Origin: Eledone cirrhosa
Taxonomy: Eukaryota
DNA length: 64,000 nucleotides
Reading direction: 5' to 3'
Assembly: GCA_964016885.1 (NCBI GenBank)
Contig: OZ024752.1
Coordinates: forward strand, 30,690,001 to 30,754,000
In this document: one piece after another, positions 337 through 63,970 of the stretch
Position numbering within the stretch: position 1 is the stretch's first letter
Layout of the letters: each line of letters starts with the position of its first letter
Translations under genes and position numbers: made by a program
Notes under the pieces: model-generated
Told to the model about the DNA's origin: nothing
Databases searched by the model: none
The model's input: the letters and a program-made list of their open reading frames with translations, nothing else

Positions 337-2461
337 TCTTTAGTTTTTGCCAAGTTGACTTCAAGATCTTTTGATTCTAAGCCATGCTTCACAATTTGGA
401 ATTTCTTTAATTCAGTTATAAGGGTTACGGATTCCCCATGAGCAGCCAGTATTGCCTGGTTTACAATGCAAGTGACTATGGTGTGACCATCATTCCTGAT
501 GGTCTCAGCATCTCGGCAAGTATCCCCAGGTGTCCAACTGCCCTGCCTGTCTTCATATTCTTGATTGCCTTACTATACTACTGCTGACTTGAACAGTCAG
601 TGCCTCTGTTGGGTTGACTTGGGGCAAACTATTTTTATCTCATGCATTTTCTTCATTCAGTAATCTTTCACCATGGCACTTCCATGCTACTCTTTCAGCA
701 TCAATGAGTGAAAGTTCGGACACATTTCTCACAACCCCCTCTCCGACACACTGTCTTGTGATCCTGAACAACTTATACTTTTACTCCTCACGCTGCAAAA
801 CATGCTTAAATTTTTTTACTTTCTGCTTCCCTCTTGCAAGGTAAACATGTCACCTAGCTTCTCTTTTAACATCTGGTAGACTTCTCTACTATCCCCATTT
901 TACCATTCCTTCCATGCCAGTTTTTTTGCCCACTTTACTATTCCACTATCAAGCCACTTTCCTTCTCCCTAGAGACCTACTCCAACTACAGATTTCATTT
1001 GTTGCTTTCAGTAGCTTTTCTTTCAGGAGTCCATTGGTGACCTTGAGCAACGAGAAATAAAGTGTCTTGCTCAAGTACATAACACATTACCCAGTCTGAG
1101 AAATCAAACTTACAACCTCAAGATTGTGAATCTAATTCTATAACCACTAAGCCATGTATCTTTAATTCACATTACATGGGAGGAAATATTGTTAAGTGAT
1201 GGAGGAATAGTAGTATATTGGCTACTAATATTTTAGTGACTAGTGTTACCTGGCATATGATGGACAACATTGGGAATATATTTTTGCTACAGGTAATGTT
1301 ACATTAACACAATCATTATTTTATCTTTTATCTTTTATTTTTCATATTTCATCATGCTTATATAAAATAATGAAGCAAAACACAAATTTTCAAATTAAAA
1401 AATATTTATTAAATAAAATAAAATGACATTTGTATACTTACAATGAATACATTATCAACACACAATTCTGATCTGACATGTCTCACCCATGCTAGTGTGA
1501 AAAAATGAACATTAAACGAGGATGATGAAACTTGCAATAATTGTTTCTACGTTAGGCACAAGGCCAGCAATTACCCAGTGCATTACTGGTACTTTATTTT
1601 ATCGACCCCCGTAAGGATGAAAGGCAAAGTCAACCTCGGCGGGATTTGAAACTTGCAATGTTATTAATACACACACATTTCAAACGTTAAGCATCGAAGG
1701 ACTGAAGTCTGATCTCTCTCTTATATATATATGTCTTGCTCAAGGATGTGTTGTTTCCTTGAGCAAGACACTTTATTTCACATTGCTCCAGTTTACTCAG
1801 CTGTAGAAATGAGATGATAGGGACTGGGGTCCATATCATTCCACTGCAAAAAAGCACCCGTAGAAATCAAGCCAGAATCAGATCCCGTCACACCCTTGCA
1901 AGCAGGGAAAAAGCGGACGTAAAATGAAATGATATACTAGCAACAGTACCCAGCGTTGCCTGGGTAGGTAAAATAAAATCTGCTTTGATGAAAAGGTGTT
2001 GATCTTAGCGACTGCTTCTCGATGACTCATCTATGGCCACACACAAGCCATGTGGGGGAGGGTGGTGATGACCTCTATCACTGATAAACGCAGCATGCTG
2101 GGAGTGGGAGGTAATGACCTCTAACACTAAGCCAAATTTCCTCACGCTATTTGATTGGAAACCGATGAATTCTCAAATACACAACTAAAAGCTCAGACGA
2201 TGTCAGTGGCCATCGTTTTGCCTTTGACCATCTATAAAATGTGCAATGATAGGTTCTATCGTAGTATAAAAGTTGAACCAAATAAATTGATTTATGTGTG
2301 AGGTGGAGCCGAAGTTTCGAATTTGAACGAAATCGGTTGAAAAATGTGTGGGAGCTAGAGCCGAAAAGGTGGTATTTTTGAATATTTAAGCGGCTGCCAT
2401 GCCGTACCAACGAAGATAGTTTCAAATATGTCTTGTGTCATCAATATAGAACAAAATATTT

Positions 2462-3220
2462 TTAACGAAACATGTTAAGAGTTTTTAGTTTTTCGCATTC
2501 TAATACTTTTTTCATAATGCTGTCATACATAGGGTGACTTATGGCTCTCATGAAATTGTCGTTGTTAGTTCTGTGTAGCCAATGAGACTTCATATCCTGT
2601 TCAGTTCGAAATTTCTTGGAAGTGAAGATGTATGTCGGGTAGTTAAAAAGCGTTAGAGTTGTACCAGATTTAGATTTAAATGTTGGCTCTTCTTGTTGCA
2701 TATTATTATTTTTTGAAGTTGGTGGTTTTGGTGATAGTTCTGGTTTAGGTATATGTTCAAGCTGGCACCAATCGCTAAAATTTTCATTAATGTCGTCTAA
2801 ACCTGCGATTAAAACGTATCTCGGTGGTTGGCAGAAGTAATTTGCCATACTGCTTGGAAATTTAATTCTTTGGCATTCCGGAATAAATCTTCCAAGTTTA
2901 GTTGCCTTTTTGTATAAACTTCTAATGTATTTGAGTCGGTTTTCGCCTGGTCGTTGAGCGCTGTGCCACACTATATGAAAGTGATTAAATGCGTTCCATT
3001 CTTTTTTCGAACATATCAATGTATTTTTAGGATGATATATAACCGTCGCTTTTTGTAGTTGTATGAATTCTTTAATTTTATAGTTTGCATTGTTTTGGTA
3101 AGAGTCTTTATGGGTTTCGTCTTCGTTGTATGAGTTAATGTTTAACTCGTAATGTTTAATCGGCACTCATCCGTCATCCCATGAGAAATCGTTCGGCTGT
3201 ATCCATGGGTAGATACACAT
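2462..3220 (-). pseudogene. Endogenous parvovirus-like NS1/Rep N-terminal HUH endonuclease region, 3'-truncated
   Basis: ATG at 3220 (MCIYPWIQPNDFSWDDG*), an in-frame TGA at 3169-3167, then the 234-aa ORF containing the RCR motif II-like NHFHIVWH (HUH at 2983-2975) and a downstream Tyr candidate (ANYFCQPPR). The sequence ends near the Helitron junction (~2405) before any SF3 helicase Walker A motif. Confidence 0.65.
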
Positions 3221-3275
3221 GTATAATTGTTGTCCTGTGTTCTGAAATGGTAAATGGTTAAATTGTAATATTACT

Positions 3276-4806
3276 TTAACGATGTGCTTGCCTTGTTTTG
3301 CCGACTCTCGTTATTTCATAATTACGTAAACCCTGTGGCCATTTGCATAGGTTAGTCTTAGCTGAATTCATTATGGTTGCATTATTTGTTCCCCATGCCA
3401 TCCATACCATTGTTTGCGGACTTCCTGATATATATTCAAAATCAATTTCAGAATGGTAAGTAATTGTCATAATGAAAGATATTTTTGAAGGATTATTTTG
3501 TGAATCTAATATCGGTATTGAATCTAATTGGTGGTGGATTTACTGGAAATTGTGTTAAATGTGATCTACCCGTATTTTCCTCTTCCACTGATTTGTCTAT
3601 TGCTAAATCTTTGCTCCAAGTCCCGTCCCTTGTTGGTGCCCACGCTGATTTTTTCGCTCCTGAATATGTATTAATTTCACAGGGTAAACCGTTAGTTAAT
3701 TTTATTGTTGGTGGTTCGTAAGTTGTATTGAATGCATAATATCCCATCATTGAAAACCAACTCGGTGTTCTATTAACCCATGTATATGCTGCTGTATCTC
3801 CTGCGTATAAGAACTGAAAGTCCCCTGTATTTAGGTATGATAGTATTTCTTGTTCGTTCCCTGTCGCTTCTTTAGTATCTTGCCATAACCACCAATCTCT
3901 TCTTACTAATCTATTGCTCTCTATATTTGCTAATTTGCCTTTGTCCCTAGTTAACGGTATGTTATGTGTCCAGTTGTTATTTAAACGTGCTATGTTCCAA
4001 GTTTGATTTGAGTATAATGCGTATTTGTTGTCTATGTAATGTATCATCCATGGTCTAGTGATAAATGTAGTATTTGTCGTAGTGTTTTGTAATGTACCTA
4101 ATTCGTCTGTTAATGGTATTATGTTTGATATTTGGTATCCGCATGAAGTTGCTACATGGTGTTAAGTATGTTTCTAATTCTGCTATCGTCATACTTGCTT
4201 TTAACTCTGTGTAAGGTATTAAAGCTGCTCTATGTGCCATTTTTAATTGTATATATTCTGCATCGTGTTTTTTGTAATAGGCTTTATCTATCGGATTCTC
4301 AGAACAATTTATGTAATATGTAAATGTTCTAGAGAATTTTTTTGATACTATTGGATTTTTATCCCCTATGTCAGGTGGTTGATCCCCTTGTGCCATTGCT
4401 GCTGATCCCCCTGGTGCTGGTCCTACGTGTGGATCTCCCATTGTTGGTATTTCAACTATCCCACTATCTTGTGATGTTGCCGCGTTTAATAGATCTTGAT
4501 CTGATACTTCGCAATATTCTTCGTTTTTATGTGATTGTTCTTCTTGTTCTATTCTCTCTTTTTACCAGTCGGTGGCATTACAAAGTTTTTCCCTCTTATT
4601 ATATTCCTTACTAAGAACGCCGCTACTCCACTACTTTTTTTACTACACTCGATTAGTTTATTATCTGATTCTAATATATTAGTATCTTCCCTGCCGTATT
4701 CTATATCCTGTTCTCTGCAGCAATTATCTAAATCATTTATAGGTTTGTTGTCTAAATTTTGTGTGTATGGCCCACAATAATTATACCCTGGTAAATGTAA
4801 AGGCAT
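3276..4806 (-). pseudogene. Endogenous parvovirus/densovirus-like capsid gene (VP1 with PLA2 domain + VP2 body), frameshifted
   Basis: ORF 4806-4549 begins MPLHLPGYNYCGPY...PINDLDNCCREQDIEYG, matching the parvoviral VP1u PLA2 (Ca-loop YxGP; HDxxY here QDIEY). After one frameshift the frame RIEQEEQ...EIPTMGDPHVGPAPGGS continues into ORF 4441-4055 (Gly-rich N-terminus, SRTFTYYI, IPY), then ORFs 4047-3493 and 3470-3276. About 1.5 kb in total with roughly 3 frameshifts and no introns. Confidence 0.8.
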
Positions 4807-5606
4807 GATTACTTAACGAGAGTTCTGCCAACATCCTAGCATCTCTACATTTTAGGTCTTCGTAGCTCATGGTGATGGGTAGCGGAGTAACGGCGTTCTG
4901 TCTTGTGCGTGTAGTTCGTCTGTGGTAAAATGTAAAGCCACTTCAAGACGTAAAATAATCAGATCTAGCGTAGTGTAAAATTTGAACAAAGTAGGTTGAT
5001 TAATGTGGGAGCTAGAGCCGAAAAAATGGAAATTTGAGTCTAAAAGTGGTATTTTTGATTATTTAAGCGGCTGCCACGCCGTCCCTGAACAACAAATGCA
5101 AAATATAAAGCCACTACAGGATGTGCAATGATAAATTCTATTTTGTTTTAAAATTTGAACAAAATCGGTGGCAAAATGTGGGAGATAGAGCCAAAAATCT
5201 TATTTTTCGATACCTAAAAAAAGGTGACCCCTCCCCTATCGATTTTTATCTGCAGAATGACCCCGGAATAAAAAAAACGATACGCTGATATACTGTAAAT
5301 GTGGTTGGTGTTAGGAAGGGCATCCAGCCGTAGAAAGCCTGCCAGATAGTCCTATACGAGCGAGACACGGTTACCCGACCAACCTTGCCTCAAGTGGCAC
5401 AACTCCTGTCTAACCCATGGTAGCGTGGAAGATGGACGTTAAACGATGATGATGATGATGATATATAGAAAACACTCCCCGATGACTAATCTATGAGCCT
5501 GTAAAGTTTCATGAAAATCGGTCGTAAGATGTAAAATTAAGTGTGTGTGTGTGTGTGTGTCTGTGTATTACCTAGTATAGGTAATTCAGACACATACACT
5601 TAATTT

Positions 5607-8199: not shown

Positions 8200-8734
8200 T
8201 GACCTCAAGACAAGAGTTAGACAAATTCAGAGATATAGGAACAATCTGGAAGAGGAAGATATATACAGTAGCACGAAAGGTTGAAAGAAATACATGGTGG
8301 TACAATATACAGAGAAGGGAATAGAAACATAACAGATGACAATCTGGAAGATATATACAGAAACTGAAGAGGGTCAAAATAGTACAAGGTAGTATAATAT
8401 ACAGAGGAAAAAATAGACATAACACAGATGACAACTGGAAGATATATATGGAAGCTGAAGAGATTGAAAGTAGTAGAAGGTGGTACTATATTTAGAGGTT
8501 GAGATAGAGACATAACACAGACAACAACTGGAAGATATATATGGAAGCTGAAGTGACTCAACGAAGTAGAAGGTGGTACAATATATAAAGGAGGGAATAG
8601 AAACATAACAGATGACAATCTGAAAGATATATACAGAAGCTGAAGAGGTTGATAGTACAAGGTAGTATAATATAGTGATATATCACAGATATATATGGAA
8701 GCTGGGAAAGGTTGAAAGAAGTAGAAGTTGGTAC

Positions 8735-8775
<41 letters not shown>

Positions 8776-16915: not shown

Positions 16916-17407
16916 AAATTTAATTACAGTATGTTTTCAGCTTATAATTAAAAGATAAATTTTGTTATGAGAACAGGCTATAATAGGTAATACTTCTCCA
17001 AGGATTGAACCTGGAATTACATGTTTGTGAAGCAAACTTTTTAATCATACATCCATGCAGTTGCTCATTGGTTCCTCTTTTATGTCTTCTTTGTTGAGAG
17101 GTCTTTTTAACTTGATTTTGAAATATAAAATTAAGGTTGGTGGATTTGCAGTAATGGGTAGAGCGTCAGACAACATGCTTTGTAGTATATAGTTACAGCT
17201 CTTTATGCCCTGAGTTCAAATCTTGCCGAGATTAACTTTGCTTTTCATTTCTATGAGATCGATAAAATAAAGTACCAGTAATGCACTGGAGTCAATTTAA
17301 TCAACTTTCCCCTCCCACCAAATTGTTAACTTTGTCCCAAAATCAGAAACCATTGTGAAATTGAAAATTTACTTTGTTTAATTTATAATTTTTAGGTAAA
17401 TTCCACC

Positions 17408-19921
17408 ATGGAAGATTCTTCAACTGGTTCTGTCCAGGAAGGAGAAAATCTTAATGATTTGCAACATTATCTAGTGAACTTTAATAAAGAAATTGGAGCT
17501 GATGTACCAACAGAGTTAGATGATACAGCAGTCGATGTGACAAACAGAGAGGAAGATGCTGTTTTTATTTCTACAACTGAAACTACATCTGTTGAAGGTA
17601 CAGAAATTGTTAATATGCAGGAATATTATACGCCACCAACTGCTATTCTAAATGCAGAAACAGAAGCTAATGACCATATATCTTGTGTTGAAACAGTTGA
17701 AGGACATTCTACTATAGAATTAGATCCTGTAGAAGCAGAGATTGTACATAAAATCTCTGATATTGTACAGAATGACCATCTCTCTGCTGTTCATGCTCAG
17801 CTTGCAGAATTATCTGGTAATCAGATTCAAGAATCTGGTTTTATTAATGGCTCTGAAATAACTGCAGAAGCGATAGCAAATAGTGAAAATGAGATTAATC
17901 GAATTATTCGTGTGGTTTCAGTACGTGGAGAGAAACATATGCATATAGAAGAAGCAAGTTTACAAGTGGTGTCTGAGGATTCTTCAAATCAACAAATACT
18001 TTCTTCCGGGGATTTAGGGGTTCAACAAATATCAGTTGATGACAGTGAAATAGTGACAGATGACAATACACAAACTATTATACGTCAAAATATTGACGGC
18101 ACTAACCCTGTGGCTGTTCTTGCCTCTGTTGCAGCTAATACTATGTGTGCTTCCTCTCACTTGCAGACAATGTCTGTTGGCTCATTGCCCACAGAAATCC
18201 ACAATGCACAGTTGGTAGCACTACAGAATTCAGAAGACAGTTCGCAGCCTCAGCTTGTTGCTGTTCAATCTGCAGATGGTGTTACGTCAGAAACATTACA
18301 TGTCATTGACAATTCTCAGGTTACTTCTTCCAACTCCTTCATTTTACCGACATCTGGCACAAATTACCAAACGGTAACTATTATGCCGTCTGATGGTAAT
18401 CGGAATGGGGAATTTAGTTATGTATTTATTGTGTCCCAGGGTGATGGGGATAAAGACTTATCTGTGTATGATTTCAAAGAAGAACCCCGAGAAATCACAG
18501 ACGAAATTATTGAAGAAGGTGGTACCACAAAACGAATTTTGAAAATAACTCCTAAAAAATTGTTCCAAACAAACCCAGCACAGCTAATGTGTCAGTATTG
18601 TAATTATACTAGTCCTAAACGGTATCTACTGACTAGACATATGAAATCACATTCTGAAGACCGACCACACAAATGTGATGTTTGTGGGCGTGGCTTCAAA
18701 ACAATGGCATCATTACAAAACCATCGAAATACTCACACTGGTACCCGACCCCACAAATGTAAGCAGTGTCATGCAGCATTTACCACTTCAGGAGAACTTG
18801 TGCGTCATGTAAGATATCGTCATACGTTTGAAAAACCTCATAAATGTTCTATGTGTGAGTATGCTAGTGTTGAGCTTAGTAAATTAAAGAGACATATGAG
18901 ATCACATACAGGAGAGAGGCCTTATCAATGTCAACACTGTTCATATGCATCACCCGACACTTACAAATTGAAGAGGCACTTACGGATACACACTGGTGAA
19001 AAACCATATGAATGTGACATCTGCCATGCTAAATTTACACAAAGTAACTCTCTCAAAGCTCACAAGCTTATTCATTCTGGCAATAAACCTGTATTTCAAT
19101 GTAACCTCTGCCCTACAACTTGTGGAAGAAAGACTGATCTTAAAATTCACATTCAAAAATTACATACAAGTGAAAAACCTCTTTGTTGTCGTAAATGTGG
19201 GAAAAATTACCTTGATCGGTATTCCTATAAATTACATATAAAAAGTCACGAAGGGGAAAAATGCTTTAAATGTGATCGCTGTGACTATGCAGCTTTATCT
19301 CAGCGCCATTTGGATAACCATTTACTAACTCATTCAGGAGAGAAACCTTTTGAATGTGATGAATGTGACCAATCATTTAGACAGAAACAGCTTCTAAAAC
19401 GACACAAGAACCTTTACCACACACCTAATTATACACCACCAAGGCCTAAAGAAAAAACTCATGAATGTACGGAATGTGATAAAAGTTTTGCCCACAAGGG
19501 TAATTTGATGCGACATCTCTCTTATCACGATTCCGAAGATGAAACAACACCCAAGGAATGTGTAAATAAATTATCTCCTAGTCCTCATGTTCATCTTACA
19601 GCTCAGCAGCTTTTACAAAGCAGTTTATTATCTGATCTTCGGGACAGTAAACTGGGTCCTGGTCGTTTACCTCAAGTGGTTCTTGTCCATCCTGATGGGC
19701 GTGTTGAAGAGGTTACTTCAAAGTTAGAGAAAGTACATGATGCTGAACAGGTTGATACATTTAGTTCACATAACCAAGAAAAGAGTATGGATGATATATT
19801 ATTAGCTATGGAAGTCACTGCTGAAGCTATGAACAATACTGACACTTCAACTTTAAATTCTGAGGGGATTCAAATATTAAATACACCTGATGCTATTAAT
19901 AGAATTACTGAAGTTAGTCAG
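17408..19921 (+). CDS. CTCF: CTCF, main coding exon (N-terminus with YDF motif, 11 C2H2 zinc fingers, start of C-terminus)
   Basis: Acceptor at 17395, Kozak CCACCATGG, 838 codons, donor CAG|GTAAGG at 19921/2. Eleven fingers at 18584-19528 with CTCF-diagnostic helices (FTTSGELVRHVRYRHT, ASVELSKLKRH, ASPDTYKLKRH, FTQSNSLKAH, FRQKQLLKRH). LSVYDFKEE at 18458-18484. Confidence 0.96.
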
Positions 19922-21950
19922 GTAAGGATCATATTTATTTATTCTTTATTTTTTATTCTTTTGTCAAATCAGGAACATATACTGAGATATGTTCCTGATT
20001 TGGTCCTTAAAAAAGGGTCTATTTGATTGAGTAGGTCACTGAGAATGTGATTCCCAGTGTGGGCGCATGCTCTACAGGGGTGGGGTGGAGGACGATTTGA
20101 AAATGATTTTGATGAGAACAAACTTCAGGTTTTACCTTATTACTTTTACACAAAGGCAGCTTTGGTACACATTTCTGTTGAAAACTCCTGTCTCACCTCC
20201 TCCATACTTTATTGGGCATCTGGCACCACGTATATGCCAATTTGTACAAAATTGGGTATAAAACTTAATTTGTTTTCATATCAAAAGGGTGCATAGCAAT
20301 TTTTGAGATGTTGAGATGGGGTATGGTGCACAAAAGGTTGGGAACCATTGGGGTAAAATAAATAGTAATTGATCGATCGATCGACAAGTTCCCAAGCCTC
20401 ACAACTCCTGGCAGAAAGAGCAACGTAAAATAAAGTGTCTTGCTCAAGGACATACTGTATTGTCCAGTCTTCCAGGTTGCAGATTATATATTTTTTTTAT
20501 AGTATTATCTGTTTATATAAATAATGTTGAAGGTTGTTATTAAGCCAAGATTTTGGGTATGTGCTTAATTCATTTCAAAAATCTACTTTCAAACTTTGTA
20601 TGATGTCTTCATTCACCATGTCAGGTTCTTTTGTGTCTATCTCATTGTGTGACTGTTGTGTGATGCCATTGGGTCATGCATTAAGGCTGTCACAGTTAAA
20701 CTTCAGCTGTTGTGTCTTATTGATTGTCTCTTGGGTGGTGGCTTAATTTTAGAATGTATAGTCAAAGAGGTGCACCATAAACATAGTTCTTAAGCATAAA
20801 TAAAAAAATGCTTACTTAGATAGGAATAGAACATAGAATTCCTTCCTTAAATCTCAAAAATCTGGGACAAGATGTGTTGCGATTTGTTCTCCACTTCCAA
20901 CCTTGTCGCTTTGACTTCAAACCTGAATATATCGGTGTATAATAATGATAACTCAGACAAAAAAAAATTATGTGTGTGTATTATATATATATATATATAT
21001 ATATATCAGCATCATTTCAGTATGAACTTAACCCTGTTGGCATGGGTTAACCTTTAGCATTTAAACCGGCCACTCATATTGACGTTATGGTATTGTTCTC
21101 AAAATAAATGACAACATTTCATAGATTCAATATTATGTGAGATAATTATGTAAGATAAAGCCTTTACCACAAAAATATAATAGTATATTTAGAGTAATGT
21201 AAATGCTAAAGGGTTAAACAAGGTATTTTGTGGTAGAGATCAACTGCTGGATGCACTTAATCCTTTTATCAGTTTGTTTTTAAGTAAGATATTTATTCTA
21301 CTGAGCTGCAGTATATAGACAAATGTCACTGGTGGTCCAGGTAGTGTTAATGTATTGACAAGTAGTAAGTGACTGGTTGCTCAGGTAGTGTTAATGTGAT
21401 GACAGGTAGTAATGAAACACACACATCGTCATCATCATTATTCAACCTCCATTTGACCTGTTAGCAACGGTTGGATGGCACCATCACATTTTTTTTTGTC
21501 ATATTTTGTATGTATAAAACCTTTTATATTACATTCTTTACTTACCTTTTTTTTTTAACCTGTAACACCTGAGAGATTTGTAGGGACACCTCATTTATAT
21601 ACAGCATTTCTAGGACATTTTAAAACCTGGCGGGTCTCCTCTCTGGAAGATATATTGTGTTACATATTCATAAATGTGTTAATACAGGACAGAAATATAG
21701 TACAGTTATACCCCGGTATTCACGGAGATCACATTCCTAGAGCACCCACAAAGAGTGAAAAACTGCAAATATTGGATGTGGTCCATAAAAATGCCTATAA
21801 ACGTCAAAACATAATGTAAAATATAGGCTGGTAAATACAGTATATTGTTACTAATAATTCAGCGTTAAAAAGCACGAAAAAATATATATTGCCACAAAAA
21901 AGCAATAAAATATTGCAGAAGATATTTATTAAAGAAAGAGCAATAATAAT

Positions 21951-39466: not shown

Positions 39467-40750
39467 TTTAATATAGAAATGGCTTCTACAGGACTAGAAC
39501 ATGTTCATTTGAAGGAAATCATCAACGCTTTCCTGGTGATTTCCTTCGAATGAAACAGTTTTAGTCCTGTAGAAGCCATGTCTATATTAAATATTTATAC
39601 TCTGCTATGTATTGAGTACCTTACTGTGGTTACCCCCGATTGAACCCAGGATTCACACAGACACATATATATATCAAGTAAGAAATTAGTTATATTTACT
39701 ATGTTGGGTTTCTAGCTGAAAGTACTCCTTATTCGAGTGAGGGGTACTTTTCCAGCAAGAAATTTCAAGTATTAAATATGAACTATAAGATTTCTCAATC
39801 GGCAGTATAAATATATTCTACTATACTCTATTTCTATATACATATATAACATTTCTCATCTGTCTGTTGTAACACCAATTGTTTTGTTTCAATTATATTT
39901 TATGGAACTCTTTAGTGTTATAAAGTTTAAAAAGTAGCAATTTTTTTGGTTATGATGTTCACAATTGTTAATTTTTTCCCCTTTAGTAATATAACTTAAA
40001 TATATCTTGTCTTTATCAAAAAATTCGTAAATTTTTTTTTTTAAGTACTATAACAAATATATTGCCTTTATTAAAAATATGTTTTATTATTTTAAAATTT
40101 TGAAGCACTGTGATATTGGACCTAATAATTTCTTCTGTAAATACTTCTAATATTTTGACATTTGTCTTGGAATCTTATGTCCAGTTGTAAAAGAGTTATG
40201 TTGTTTAGTGTTTGGTTAGTCTTGACCAAAGCAGACCTATGCTCAAAGATGTTCCAGCCGTAACCATCTTATCTTTTTGTATATAAGACTACTTTGTTCC
40301 AATGTGTCCTTCAATTTTTTTTAGATGGTAGTGTGATTTTGAGGGATATTTGCCTGCTATTTCTAGCATATTGTGTAACTATGTATAGACTCATCTCATC
40401 AACTCATAAAAGAAGTCCATTCCTGGCTGGTTAGTCTCTTTTCATCTTCCCTTGGTGCATATATTATCTTCTGAAGAGCTGTAAAACCTACCTGTATATT
40501 ATGGAAGGTGTATGACATTAAAACTGTAATGTCTACCTGTATATCATGGAAGGTGTATGACAGCTGTAGAACCTACTTGTATATCATGGAAAGTGTATGA
40601 GTAATTCTAAATGTTTATTTAATGAACTCTAGTCAATGTACCACACAACTTTACAATAATCAATCAACCAGGTGTAAATATTAAACTAATAGATGGAAAG
40701 AAAATTTGAAAATATTGATTCTGAAAGTTAGCAGCAACTAATTCAGAAAG

Positions 40751-61703: not shown

Positions 61704-63970
61704 TGTTTCTTTTATTTGCCACCAGGGCATCAAAAGTGGGACAAGTACAAAGGGGGGAGTTTACACAAAAAGGCGTCCTCAATAAGGAGGAGGCAATAAC
61801 AATGTATAAAAATAAAATAAAATATAACAAAAAATAAAATTTATAACAAAGTCCTCAATAGAGAGGAGGCGCCTTGGGGGGGTCGCACACACCCCCGAAA
61901 AAAGTGCGCAACCCTTTTCCTCAGGAGCACAGAGAGGGGGTGCTCCCTCGTTCCTTCCTCTTTTCCACCTACAGGCTTATGTAAAGAGAAGGCCCATTCA
62001 CACGGGCCATTCTCGCCACTTTCACCCACCTTTCATAAAAACGACTGGGGTGGAGCACCTCTCTCTCCATCCTGATCCTTCTTCCGAAATGATATCGGAA
62101 GAAACGGACCAGTTGTTGGCCAGAGAGAAAGGTGCCTGACCTCAGTCCTTTCAGACGCGTCCACCATACAATTTCTTTCACCATGGCTATTACGCACAGA
62201 AACACCGCCTCTCCTTCATCTTTGAAGGGGGGAGGCGGCTTGATCATTACAATAGACTCGGTGGTCAACTGGATCGGTCCCACCCTTGACAGCAGTTGTT
62301 CGATATAGCCCCACAGATCGGCTACGCCCGAGCAGTGTACCAATGCGTGTGAAACGGTTTCCTCGTCGCACACGCATCTGGGACAGATCTTTTTGGCGGG
62401 GTCCCTACCCGGGCGCCCGTGTCTGTAGAGCTTTTCTCGAACGGGTAGAGCCCCTCGGTAGCACTGCCAGGCCAGGGACTTCTGGAAGTTGTCCATAGGT
62501 CCCGGGCTGAATGTCCTACCGAACAGGCTGGCCAGTTCGTCCTCCTCCATGTCTAGGGCTTCTCCGAGGGCGTCGTCGCACCTGCTGCGTACCAGCCCTC
62601 TATAGAATGTTGCGGTGGAGTCTCCACTGATAACCGGATCCGCCTGCCAGAGGGTGGTGAGCGCCTGGGCACACTCAGTGTGCCAGGCGCCCAGTTTTCT
62701 CGGTCTTTGCTTGACCCAGGATTGCAGCTCGGTGAGTGAGACGAGTCTGGGAAAGCTTCGTCTCACAAACGAGGCCCACACCGGTTGACCGGTGAGGAAT
62801 ACGTAGAGGTGCCGTAGCCTTAATGCGTGTTTACGCATCATTAGCCACGGCATCCCCAGCCCTCCTTTCGAAGGGTGTTGACAGCAGATGGATCTCCTTA
62901 CCATAGGAGCCCGCCTCTTCCAAAGGAATTGGAAGAGCGCGCGCTCCATCTTGGTTAGGGTTTCCCTTGGGCAGGGCACTACGGTCAGGCGGTAGTAGAT
63001 GACGGACGCTATATAGGTGTTCGCCACCTCCGCCCGACCTTTCAGGGATAGTTTGCAACTGGCCCACTTCTGGGTCAGTGCAAACACCCTGTTCGTAACC
63101 TCCGCCCAGTTTTTCTCCACCTGGAGGCCCGTCCGAACCAGATCCCGAGCAACTTCACCGGGCCCTCCGTCCAGCGTCCGACGACGCCATCGGAGGGCAT
63201 CGGTCTGCCCCTCCACGTGCCGAGTTGCAAACCGATCGACTTGTCCCGGTTCAGCTTAGTCCCTGTGAACCTTTCGTACTCCTCCAGTAAGGTGCCGACC
63301 GCCTCGATTTCGGAGGCCGTCTACACCATTACTGTCACGTCATCGGCGTAGGCCGACACCGCTTTCCGTAATCCCGGTTCCAAAGAGATGCCCTGCAACA
63401 ACTCCAACTTCCGCAGTAGTGGCTCGAGAGTCAACACATACAAAAGGGAGGAGAGAGGGCACCCTTGTCGGATGGACCGCGCGATTTTGAACGGCTCCGA
63501 GAGGTAGCCGTTCCCCTTGACTCTAGAGCAGATGCGGTCGCTGTGCATAGCAGTGATCCAGCCCCTGAAAACGGGTCCGAAGCCTGCCGCCGCTAGCACC
63601 GCATCCAGGTAACCATGGTCGACCCTATCGAACGCCTTAGATTGATCCAAGTTGATCAGAGCCCCACCAAAGCCGGGTTCGTTCCCAACCCTCTCTATGA
63701 TGTATCGCATGAGGTGGAGGTTGTCATGGATGGACCTGGACGGGATAGCGCATGTCTGTGCATCTCCCACCAGGTTGCCCACGACAAGCGCCAACCTCTT
63801 TGCTAGCACCTTGGCCAAAATCTGTAACTCTGTATTTAGCAGGGCCTGAAGTTACTTATTTCGTCCCCCTTGTTCTCGTCCTTCCTCACTAGCGTGACTA
63901 TGCCCTTGGTCACAGTACAGGGAATTCTCCCGTTCTGTTGCCAGTTGCAGTAGACCGCCTCGAGGAGATC
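61704..63970 (-). mobile_element. 5'-truncated Tx1/L1-clade LINE with a perfect 14-bp TSD
   Basis: GGTTTCATAAGATA at 61690-61703 and 63971-63984. Markedly GC-richer than the host. Minus-strand AATAAA near the 3' end (~61716-61711). Confidence 0.92.
61969..63960 (-). pseudogene. LINE ORF2 fragment: reverse transcriptase and C-terminal zinc-binding domain, frameshifted
   Basis: RT motifs LINLDQSKAFDRVDH, IRQGCPLS and AYADD (63818-63321); LSLKGR, KGGLG and CPRC...ETVSHALVHC (63216-61969). The frame breaks near 63320-63220 and 63850. Confidence 0.9.

Follow-up and report, generated by a model that had tools for sequence, protein, structure and literature searches.

The window analysed here is a stretch of 64,000 nt from Eledone cirrhosa (contig OZ024752.1, positions 30,690,001 to 30,754,000 of the forward strand), and it carries on its minus strand, at 2409-4925, a degraded endogenous viral element (EVE) of 2.5 kb lying within a high-copy host repeat. 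Read along the minus strand, VP1 with a PLA2 domain and the continuing capsid gene VP (4806-3276) are followed, after 55 nt, by the frame of the replication protein NS1, in agreement with a preliminary description of this DNA that had noted the capsid gene ahead of a Rep-like frame. A relative with intact frames, Parvovirus octopus5722 (Parvo5722, BK066711), was found by a motif search of the supplements of Buck et al. (PMC11071296; bioRxiv 10.1101/2024.03.25.586562), where its entry describes a sequence from Octopus vulgaris white-body RNA-seq, recorded as linear and comprising 4780 nt trimmed from an initial contig of 5722 nt. The nucleotide comparison with BK066711 covered the first 400 of its 4780 nt and was made by eye.

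Genes and boundaries of the viral element

At its 5′ end the element retains an untranslated leader (4871-4925, minus strand, as for all viral genes below), the edge of which falls close to where transcription of the relative is predicted to begin and in which a 17-nt stretch (4898-4882) is identical to nt 209-225 of BK066711. The leader is followed by an open reading frame (ORF) of 18 codons (4817-4870), sharing 10 of 18 residues with an ORF at nt 238-291 of BK066711, and by a 10-nt gap (4807-4816) reaching to the VP1 ATG. The same 10-nt gap is found in BK066711, where it holds a consensus phase-0 splice donor; this position is broken in the window copy. The preliminary description had proposed that 4807-4930 could be the tail of the Rep gene on a circular genome, but the stretch matched none of 151 NS relatives (best E-value 1.9, against the NS1 homolog P0001) and instead matched the leader and short ORF of BK066711. 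Since 4807-4925 is a leader, the case for a circle drawn from this stretch fails.

The VP1-unique region (4579-4806) carries a parvoviral PLA2 domain, which at 4806-4552 matched PF08398 in Pfam (E 8e-14); six of the seven pieces searched were without any Pfam match. The catalytic histidine, assigned through the HDxxY motif that we take to be that of PLA2, is absent from the window copy. The major capsid protein gene (3276-4578, stop codon at 3278-3276) is broken into three frames, with frameshifts near 4552-4561, 4140-4160 and 3493-3539. One VP piece matched the capsid of Penaeus monodon metallodensovirus (PmMDV; 6wh3, E 1.2e-4) over 48 amino acids (aa) only, and the two other pieces had no match in the PDB. 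No VP homologs were found among longer proteins, and an ESM Atlas search with VP gave scores of 0.80 at most.

As previously described, the NS frame opens at 3310, and the first ATG in it is at 3220. The 234-codon ORF (3166-2462) that had been taken as Rep-like is indeed NS1, but only the part of it that follows an in-frame stop (3167-3169), and the gene starts upstream. The sole match of this ORF among 283 candidates was P0001, a Logan protein of 547 aa, and the NS1 main exon (2471-3241, with a predicted start at 3241 and a Met at 3220) was 72.6% identical to P0001 residues 1-249 by tblastn. The HUH motif HFH (2983-2975) and the motif III tyrosine (2839-2837) are both conserved, and H62 and H64 were nearly invariant across 14 NS sequences. 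About 27 codons are missing at 2470, after which comes a last NS1 remnant (2409-2468), out of frame and overlooked in the preliminary description, which corresponds to P0001 residues 277 to about 296 (tblastn, 61% over 277-307, E 1.2e-4). The element stops at 2409, and the SF3 helicase of NS1 type present in the 72%-identical P0001 has been lost from the window copy.

The best matches of P0001 in Pfam, the PDB and BFVD were parvoviral NS1 and papillomavirus E1. P0001 matched Parvo_NS1 (PF01057, E 1.4e-18) in Pfam and AAV Rep40 (E 3.4e-24) with profile A1, and among the best 50 rows in BFVD its best matches were parvoviral NS proteins of 14-27% identity. A structural model of P0001 (pLDDT 74.9) aligned across both domains with AAV2 Rep68 (E 3.5e-16, 528 columns). 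The model of the partial nuclease from the window itself gave a weak result in a VIA search, the top rows being HUH RepB (Z 4.4, rmsd 3.0, 91 aligned) and nothing reaching Z ≥5 among 48,161 chains. Judged by its motifs, the P0001 model, the alignment with AAV2 Rep68 and the parvoviral NS matches, the window frame is a parvovirus-type HUH/SF3 NS1 cut before the helicase, an outcome in favour of the preliminary description, which would have fallen had the 234-aa ORF lacked an HUH nuclease fold.

On the left the insert borders a non-viral host repeat unit with a period of about 173 nt (2218-2408), which aligns with 4927-5200, and on the right two more units of the same repeat (4926-5290). The repeat alignment sets the left edge of the element at 2408/2409; one repeat unit lacks about 14 nt at the insertion, and no target duplication was seen at the insert edges when the repeats of both flanks were aligned. 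Contig depth was compared in four of the seven listed sequencing runs. In run X1 the summed depth of the flanking repeat was 55,614 at 2255-2405 and 66,991-70,363 at 4973-5274, compared to 16-113 in the insert interior and 12.5 for the locus-identical contig, and the repeat (2000-2408 and 4926-5290, with its 173-nt internal unit) is present at approximately 4,000-5,000 times single-copy depth. It presumably resembles the non-autonomous elements of Helitron/Helentron type, and the presence of an HUH virus within an HUH-transposon-like repeat is perhaps not a coincidence. The 5′ edge of the insert (4925) corresponds to about nt 183 of BK066711, a few bases from the predicted transcription start (TATA box at about nt 149), and this position hints at capture via unspliced RNA instead of genomic DNA. 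A near-identical word of 12-13 nt occurs on the minus strand before the VP1 ATG (4812-4823) and at the VP stop (3270-3282); BK066711 differs at the first site, so the repetition may be due to chance.

Gene order in other copies and in BK066711

In runs X1 and X2, both from one sample that is possibly the source of the window sequence, contigs of 925 nt identical to 2404-3328 cross the VP/NS junction. An assembly artefact was considered as the origin of the gene order and rejected on these contigs, with the same proviso as to their source. In run X4, a diverged contig (record 19, its orientation taken from records 8 and 15) aligns without gaps to 3200-3492, differing at 42 positions, and extends 1,249 nt further toward NS. 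Two more contigs, X4 record 20 (starting at 3239) and X2 record 11 (reaching 3252), take in the VP stop together with a portion of the spacer. The VP-NS order is thus not a private rearrangement of the window copy. With 88 million letters, run X4 is a small one in which the flanking repeat is almost absent (depth 9-67 vs. about 50,000 in X1); its profile is unlike whole-genome data, and it contains contigs identical to parts of the locus as well as several diverged copies.

Differences among the copies were read from 40 tool-chosen rows of 734, 30 of them within the insert, and when four spacer differences and five in frame overlaps were left out, 21 coding differences could be counted. Of these, 17 were at third positions (P 1e-5) and 14 were synonymous (P 6e-4). 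As the differences are mostly third-position or synonymous, the copies diverged under selection on both VP and NS1, as is expected of viruses.

The first 400 nt of BK066711 contain TATA boxes near nt 92 and 149, followed by the 18-codon ORF, the splice donor directly after it and the start of the VP1 PLA2 region at nt 302. VP1 thus stands at the left end of BK066711, and since the sequence starts with promoter-like sequence and VP1, there is no room for NS1 on that side. The frames of Parvo5722 are intact, the promoter region is present and a full NS1 of 547 aa is annotated as unspliced; neither the VP1-unique region nor a leader exon is listed in the available part of its annotation. Its proteins are given in the supplement extract in the order Vbit, VP, NS1, Dened and P6465, and the papillomavirus entries beside it there are listed in map order. 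The VP of Parvo5722 was identical to that of the window at 86 of 99 residues in one block, with the last 26 residues identical (by eye), and its NS1 opens with the residues encoded at window 3223-3203, which together strongly suggests that NS1 follows VP on the same strand in BK066711.

The preliminary description had proposed a native cap-to-rep unisense layout, to be doubted if the closest relatives kept the standard NS-VP order. The closest relative, BK066711, does not begin with NS. Because the diverged, constrained copies share the junction and BK066711 opens with promoter-like sequence and VP1, the capsid-first order is very probably native.

Predicted splicing of NS1 and alternative explanations

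In a genome that opens with a promoter and VP, some means of expressing NS1 is required. The spacer after the VP stop (3242-3275) has the features of a 3′ intron end, namely a branch-like site, a pyrimidine run and a CAG at 3244-3242. When the 83 YAG sites on the minus strand were scored for pyrimidines, branch site and absence of AG, this putative acceptor ranked first; its pyrimidine content (12 of 17) was equalled by two other sites, and it alone combined a branch-like site with no upstream AG. The donor position after the leader ORF and the acceptor are both in phase 0 of the NS frame, so that the ORF at 4817-4870 fits the acceptor as a predicted first NS1 exon. The seven codons between the acceptor and Met 3220 look coding. 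All three listed differences within 3241-3221 (3233, 3236 and 3239) are synonymous in the NS frame, as opposed to the one at 3261 upstream, and the seven codons resemble residues 2-10 of the relative P0014. A similar GxxLY stretch occurs at the corresponding position of both P0014 and P0161, and the tblastn alignment extends to 3247. NS1 is therefore likely to be composed of a leader exon and a main exon with the capsid gene inside the intron, a likely link that the preliminary description had overlooked.

Under this model, the left-end promoter would give a single pre-mRNA comprising the leader exon, VP1/VP and the NS1 main exon. The capsid proteins would be made from unspliced or short-spliced RNA, and NS1 from RNA that has lost a 1,575-nt intron (4816-3242). 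Switching between replication and capsid synthesis would then depend on a splice choice and not on promoter order. Taken together, we consider a capsid-first virus with a linear genome and an NS1 spliced across VP to be the most plausible reading, and hold it with moderate confidence.

Several points weigh against this reading. The acceptor score is a crude ranking and not the output of a trained model, no spliced junction reads were seen, the donor-equivalent site is broken in the window copy, and the leader ORF matched the N-terminus of no stored NS protein. The synonymy count has the tool-chosen difference rows as its base, and the place of NS1 in BK066711 is read from list order and junction residues. 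BK066711 may also be a transcribed EVE and not a free virus, since it is a trimmed RNA-seq contig and the Dened peptide looks microsatellite-derived. We know of no virion-derived genome or terminal hairpin of this lineage. Finally, a linear genome with spliced NS1 leaves unexplained a weak stem-loop (3257-3280) in the spacer region, whose 10-nt palindrome at 3265-3274 contains TAATATTAC. The preliminary description had reported no palindrome between the genes, which holds for anything the size of a terminal hairpin (among perfect inverted repeats with a loop of <60 nt in 2409-4925 the longest has 7 bp) but misses this palindrome.

The stem-loop is the main argument for an alternative in which the capsid-first unit was carried on circular single-stranded DNA without terminal hairpins, NS1 nicking the TAATATTAC loop in the manner of CRESS viruses. 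We take TAATATTAC to be the geminivirus origin nonanucleotide; about four exact matches are expected per 64 kb, but together with a 6-bp stem it occurs only once in the element, precisely in the spacer, and no more than 5 of 20,000 shuffles of the spacer sequence gave such a site. The topology cannot be read from an RNA-seq contig such as BK066711, and the nearest ESM Atlas clusters are labelled Cressdnaviricota, at scores (0.93-0.94) under the recognition threshold. Some mollusc-associated parvovirus contigs are also recorded as circular in the accessible data of Buck et al. However, the stem is weak and A/T-only (-1.8 to -2.5 kcal/mol, fold z -1.7 to -2.0), the shuffle test was post hoc, and of the two arms one is the VP stop codon and the other the branch-like site. 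Within one arm, position 3261 is changed in 80 of 102 units of depth in X1 and throughout X4, with no compensating change among the 40 of 734 difference rows shown. With 4807-4925 being a leader and not a Rep tail, and BK066711 recorded as linear, we regard as unlikely a small hairpin-less circle bearing NS1, a PLA2 capsid in the NS1 intron and a geminivirus-type origin at the intron end. Such a circular lineage of octopuses and tubeworms would bridge the parvoviruses and the CRESS viruses, a prospect to which we give the same low weight.

Slightly less probable still is that the order is native and NS1 is expressed from Met 3220 by its own promoter within the end of the capsid gene, the leader donor serving the capsid only. 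In P0001 and several relatives the called protein starts at the Met corresponding to 3220, a TATA-like word is found at 3434 and NS1 of Parvo5722 is annotated as unspliced; this explanation does not, however, account for the exclusively synonymous differences listed (3/3) in the seven pre-Met codons or their resemblance to P0014, for the best acceptor of the element lying at the start of these codons in a phase that fits the leader ORF, or for the conservation of that ORF as protein (10/18). The least probable of the three alternatives, and in our view an improbable one, is that the order arose once in a host, from an NS-VP concatemer or episome that had lost its ends, with all copies including BK066711 descending from it. 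Every copy with visible context comes from host DNA or RNA, rearranged NS copies exist in the clade (P0009), and the surrounding repeat, with its thousands of copies, could have spread the insert. The mostly synonymous differences in VP and NS1 are nevertheless unlike those of neutral duplicates, VP1 is preceded by a promoter and leader and not by an NS1 end, and the spacer lacks the hairpin remnant, TATA box or AATAAA/ATTAAA that a fusion of right and left ends would be expected to leave.

If a linear genome with spliced NS1 is correct, the capsid gene would lie inside an intron of the replication gene, and the early/late switch would be reduced to one choice of splicing, at exactly predicted sites: a donor after nt 291 of BK066711 and an acceptor just before NS1. 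More generally, a monosense capsid-first genome breaks the rule, stated in reviews for every parvovirus, that NS is placed to the left of VP, with promoter order providing early replication and late capsid synthesis.

Relatives, classification and other features of the window

A phmmer search with P0001 found 1,215 proteins at E ≤0.001, of which 150 were listed. In a helicase tree of 147 rows, P0001 belonged to a clade of 22 rows (SH-aLRT 98) including P0003 from Octopus bimaculoides, P0016 from the tubeworm Lamellibrachia satsuma and P0004 from a contig of 4,017 nt; the tree is a quick, midpoint-rooted one without named reference viruses, and no placement in a subfamily is claimed from it. 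P0004, P0019, P0021, P0022, P0026 and P0161 are carried on contigs of 3.8-4.2 kb. Among named relatives, those nearest to the insert are from O. bimaculoides (P0003) and O. vulgaris, and the host of this parvovirus-like virus was likely an octopus. The insert marks a little-sampled clade, with relatives in O. bimaculoides and L. satsuma and transcribed octopus copies with intact frames. Within the relatives, P0009 joins the helicase part to a second nuclease part, and P0152, P0154 and P0157 each have a longest contig of 168,177 nt, which suggests clustered NS1 copies in one host contig.

No close relative was found in IMG/VR scans with the window ORF, P0001, A3, A4, P0021, P0004 and two DNA patterns, nor in one scan of metagenomes and one of prokaryote genomes for the genomic context of relatives. 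One IMG/VR scan gave 14 loci on contigs of 7-8 kb at 24-32% identity, which from their size are presumably papillomaviruses, and one contig of 1.4 kb at 26%.

The insert works like a parvovirus, with an NS1 and a PLA2 capsid. It shares with Parvoviridae (Parvovirinae, Densovirinae, Hamavirinae and others) the HUH and, judged by P0001, SF3 domains of NS1, the PLA2-bearing VP1-unique region and a capsid apparently related to a parvoviral one. In the available texts, the family is defined on the SF3 domain (PMC13426907), some genera splice heavily from a single promoter (PMC13426907; PMC12298888), and NS is stated to be the left cassette and VP the right one, on the same or opposite strands (PMC11357303; PMC12298888). 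Here, in contrast, VP lies upstream on the same strand, predicted to be within an NS1 intron, and as VP precedes NS, the insert was filed as parvovirus-like and not as a member of the family.

The capsid of PmMDV (Metallovirinae), from an aquatic invertebrate host, is the only solved one with sequence similarity (6wh3, 48 aa); PmMDV is described, in the accessible text, as lacking PLA2 and carrying inverted terminal repeats of 416 nt (PMC11357303), whereas the insert has PLA2. The NS1 of PmMDV does not appear among the best 50 BFVD rows for P0001. The Cah-bearing parvoviruses of Buck et al. (PMC11071296) likewise come from marine invertebrate sources, and in the supplement extract some are recorded as circular and in the entry for one of them, Parvo5686, VP stands ahead of NS1 in the list; they are defined by the Cah gene and exceed 5 kb, in contrast to the 4780 nt of the linear-recorded Parvo5722. 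None of the five Parvo5722 proteins is named Cah and the partial insert has no extra gene, although no Cah search was made. In the Swazi bat megaparvovirus lineage, a PLA2-bearing ORF with a splice donor lies upstream of NS1, but the capsid gene is downstream of NS1 and without PLA2, in a genome of about 6.4 kb, according to the available text (PMC13426907). Cressdnaviricota share the HUH nuclease and a TAATATTAC stem-loop in an intergenic space, here a weak one, while the helicase of the relative is of NS1/E1 type by Pfam and fold, and the capsid and PLA2 are parvoviral.

In the available parts of the literature, mollusc parvovirus sequences have been left unplaced, with octopus not named (PMC5013282), and PMC9896142 and PMC10267136 add no capsid-first case. 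The available main text of Buck et al. (PMC11071296) mentions neither octopus, 5722, gene order nor splicing. The preliminary description had recognized no described lineage and missed that the sequence type is already deposited in GenBank (BK066711). No description of the layout was found in the literature accessible to the search.

The remainder of the window is animal DNA, A+T-rich and with many microsatellites. A CTCF gene (E 4e-117 to human CTCF) follows the viral insert at a distance of about 12.5 kb, encoded together with its zinc fingers in one exon, an 876-codon frame at 17396-20026 on the plus strand. Two frames on the minus strand at 61969-63851, in a G+C-rich stretch running past the end of the window, form a reverse transcriptase-like gene that we take to belong to a non-LTR retrotransposon family. 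A microsatellite of TA/TATG type with 9-23% G+C occupies about 5.7 kb at 33840-39550, and a degenerate tandem repeat of about 92 nt is present in at least four copies at 8232-8740.

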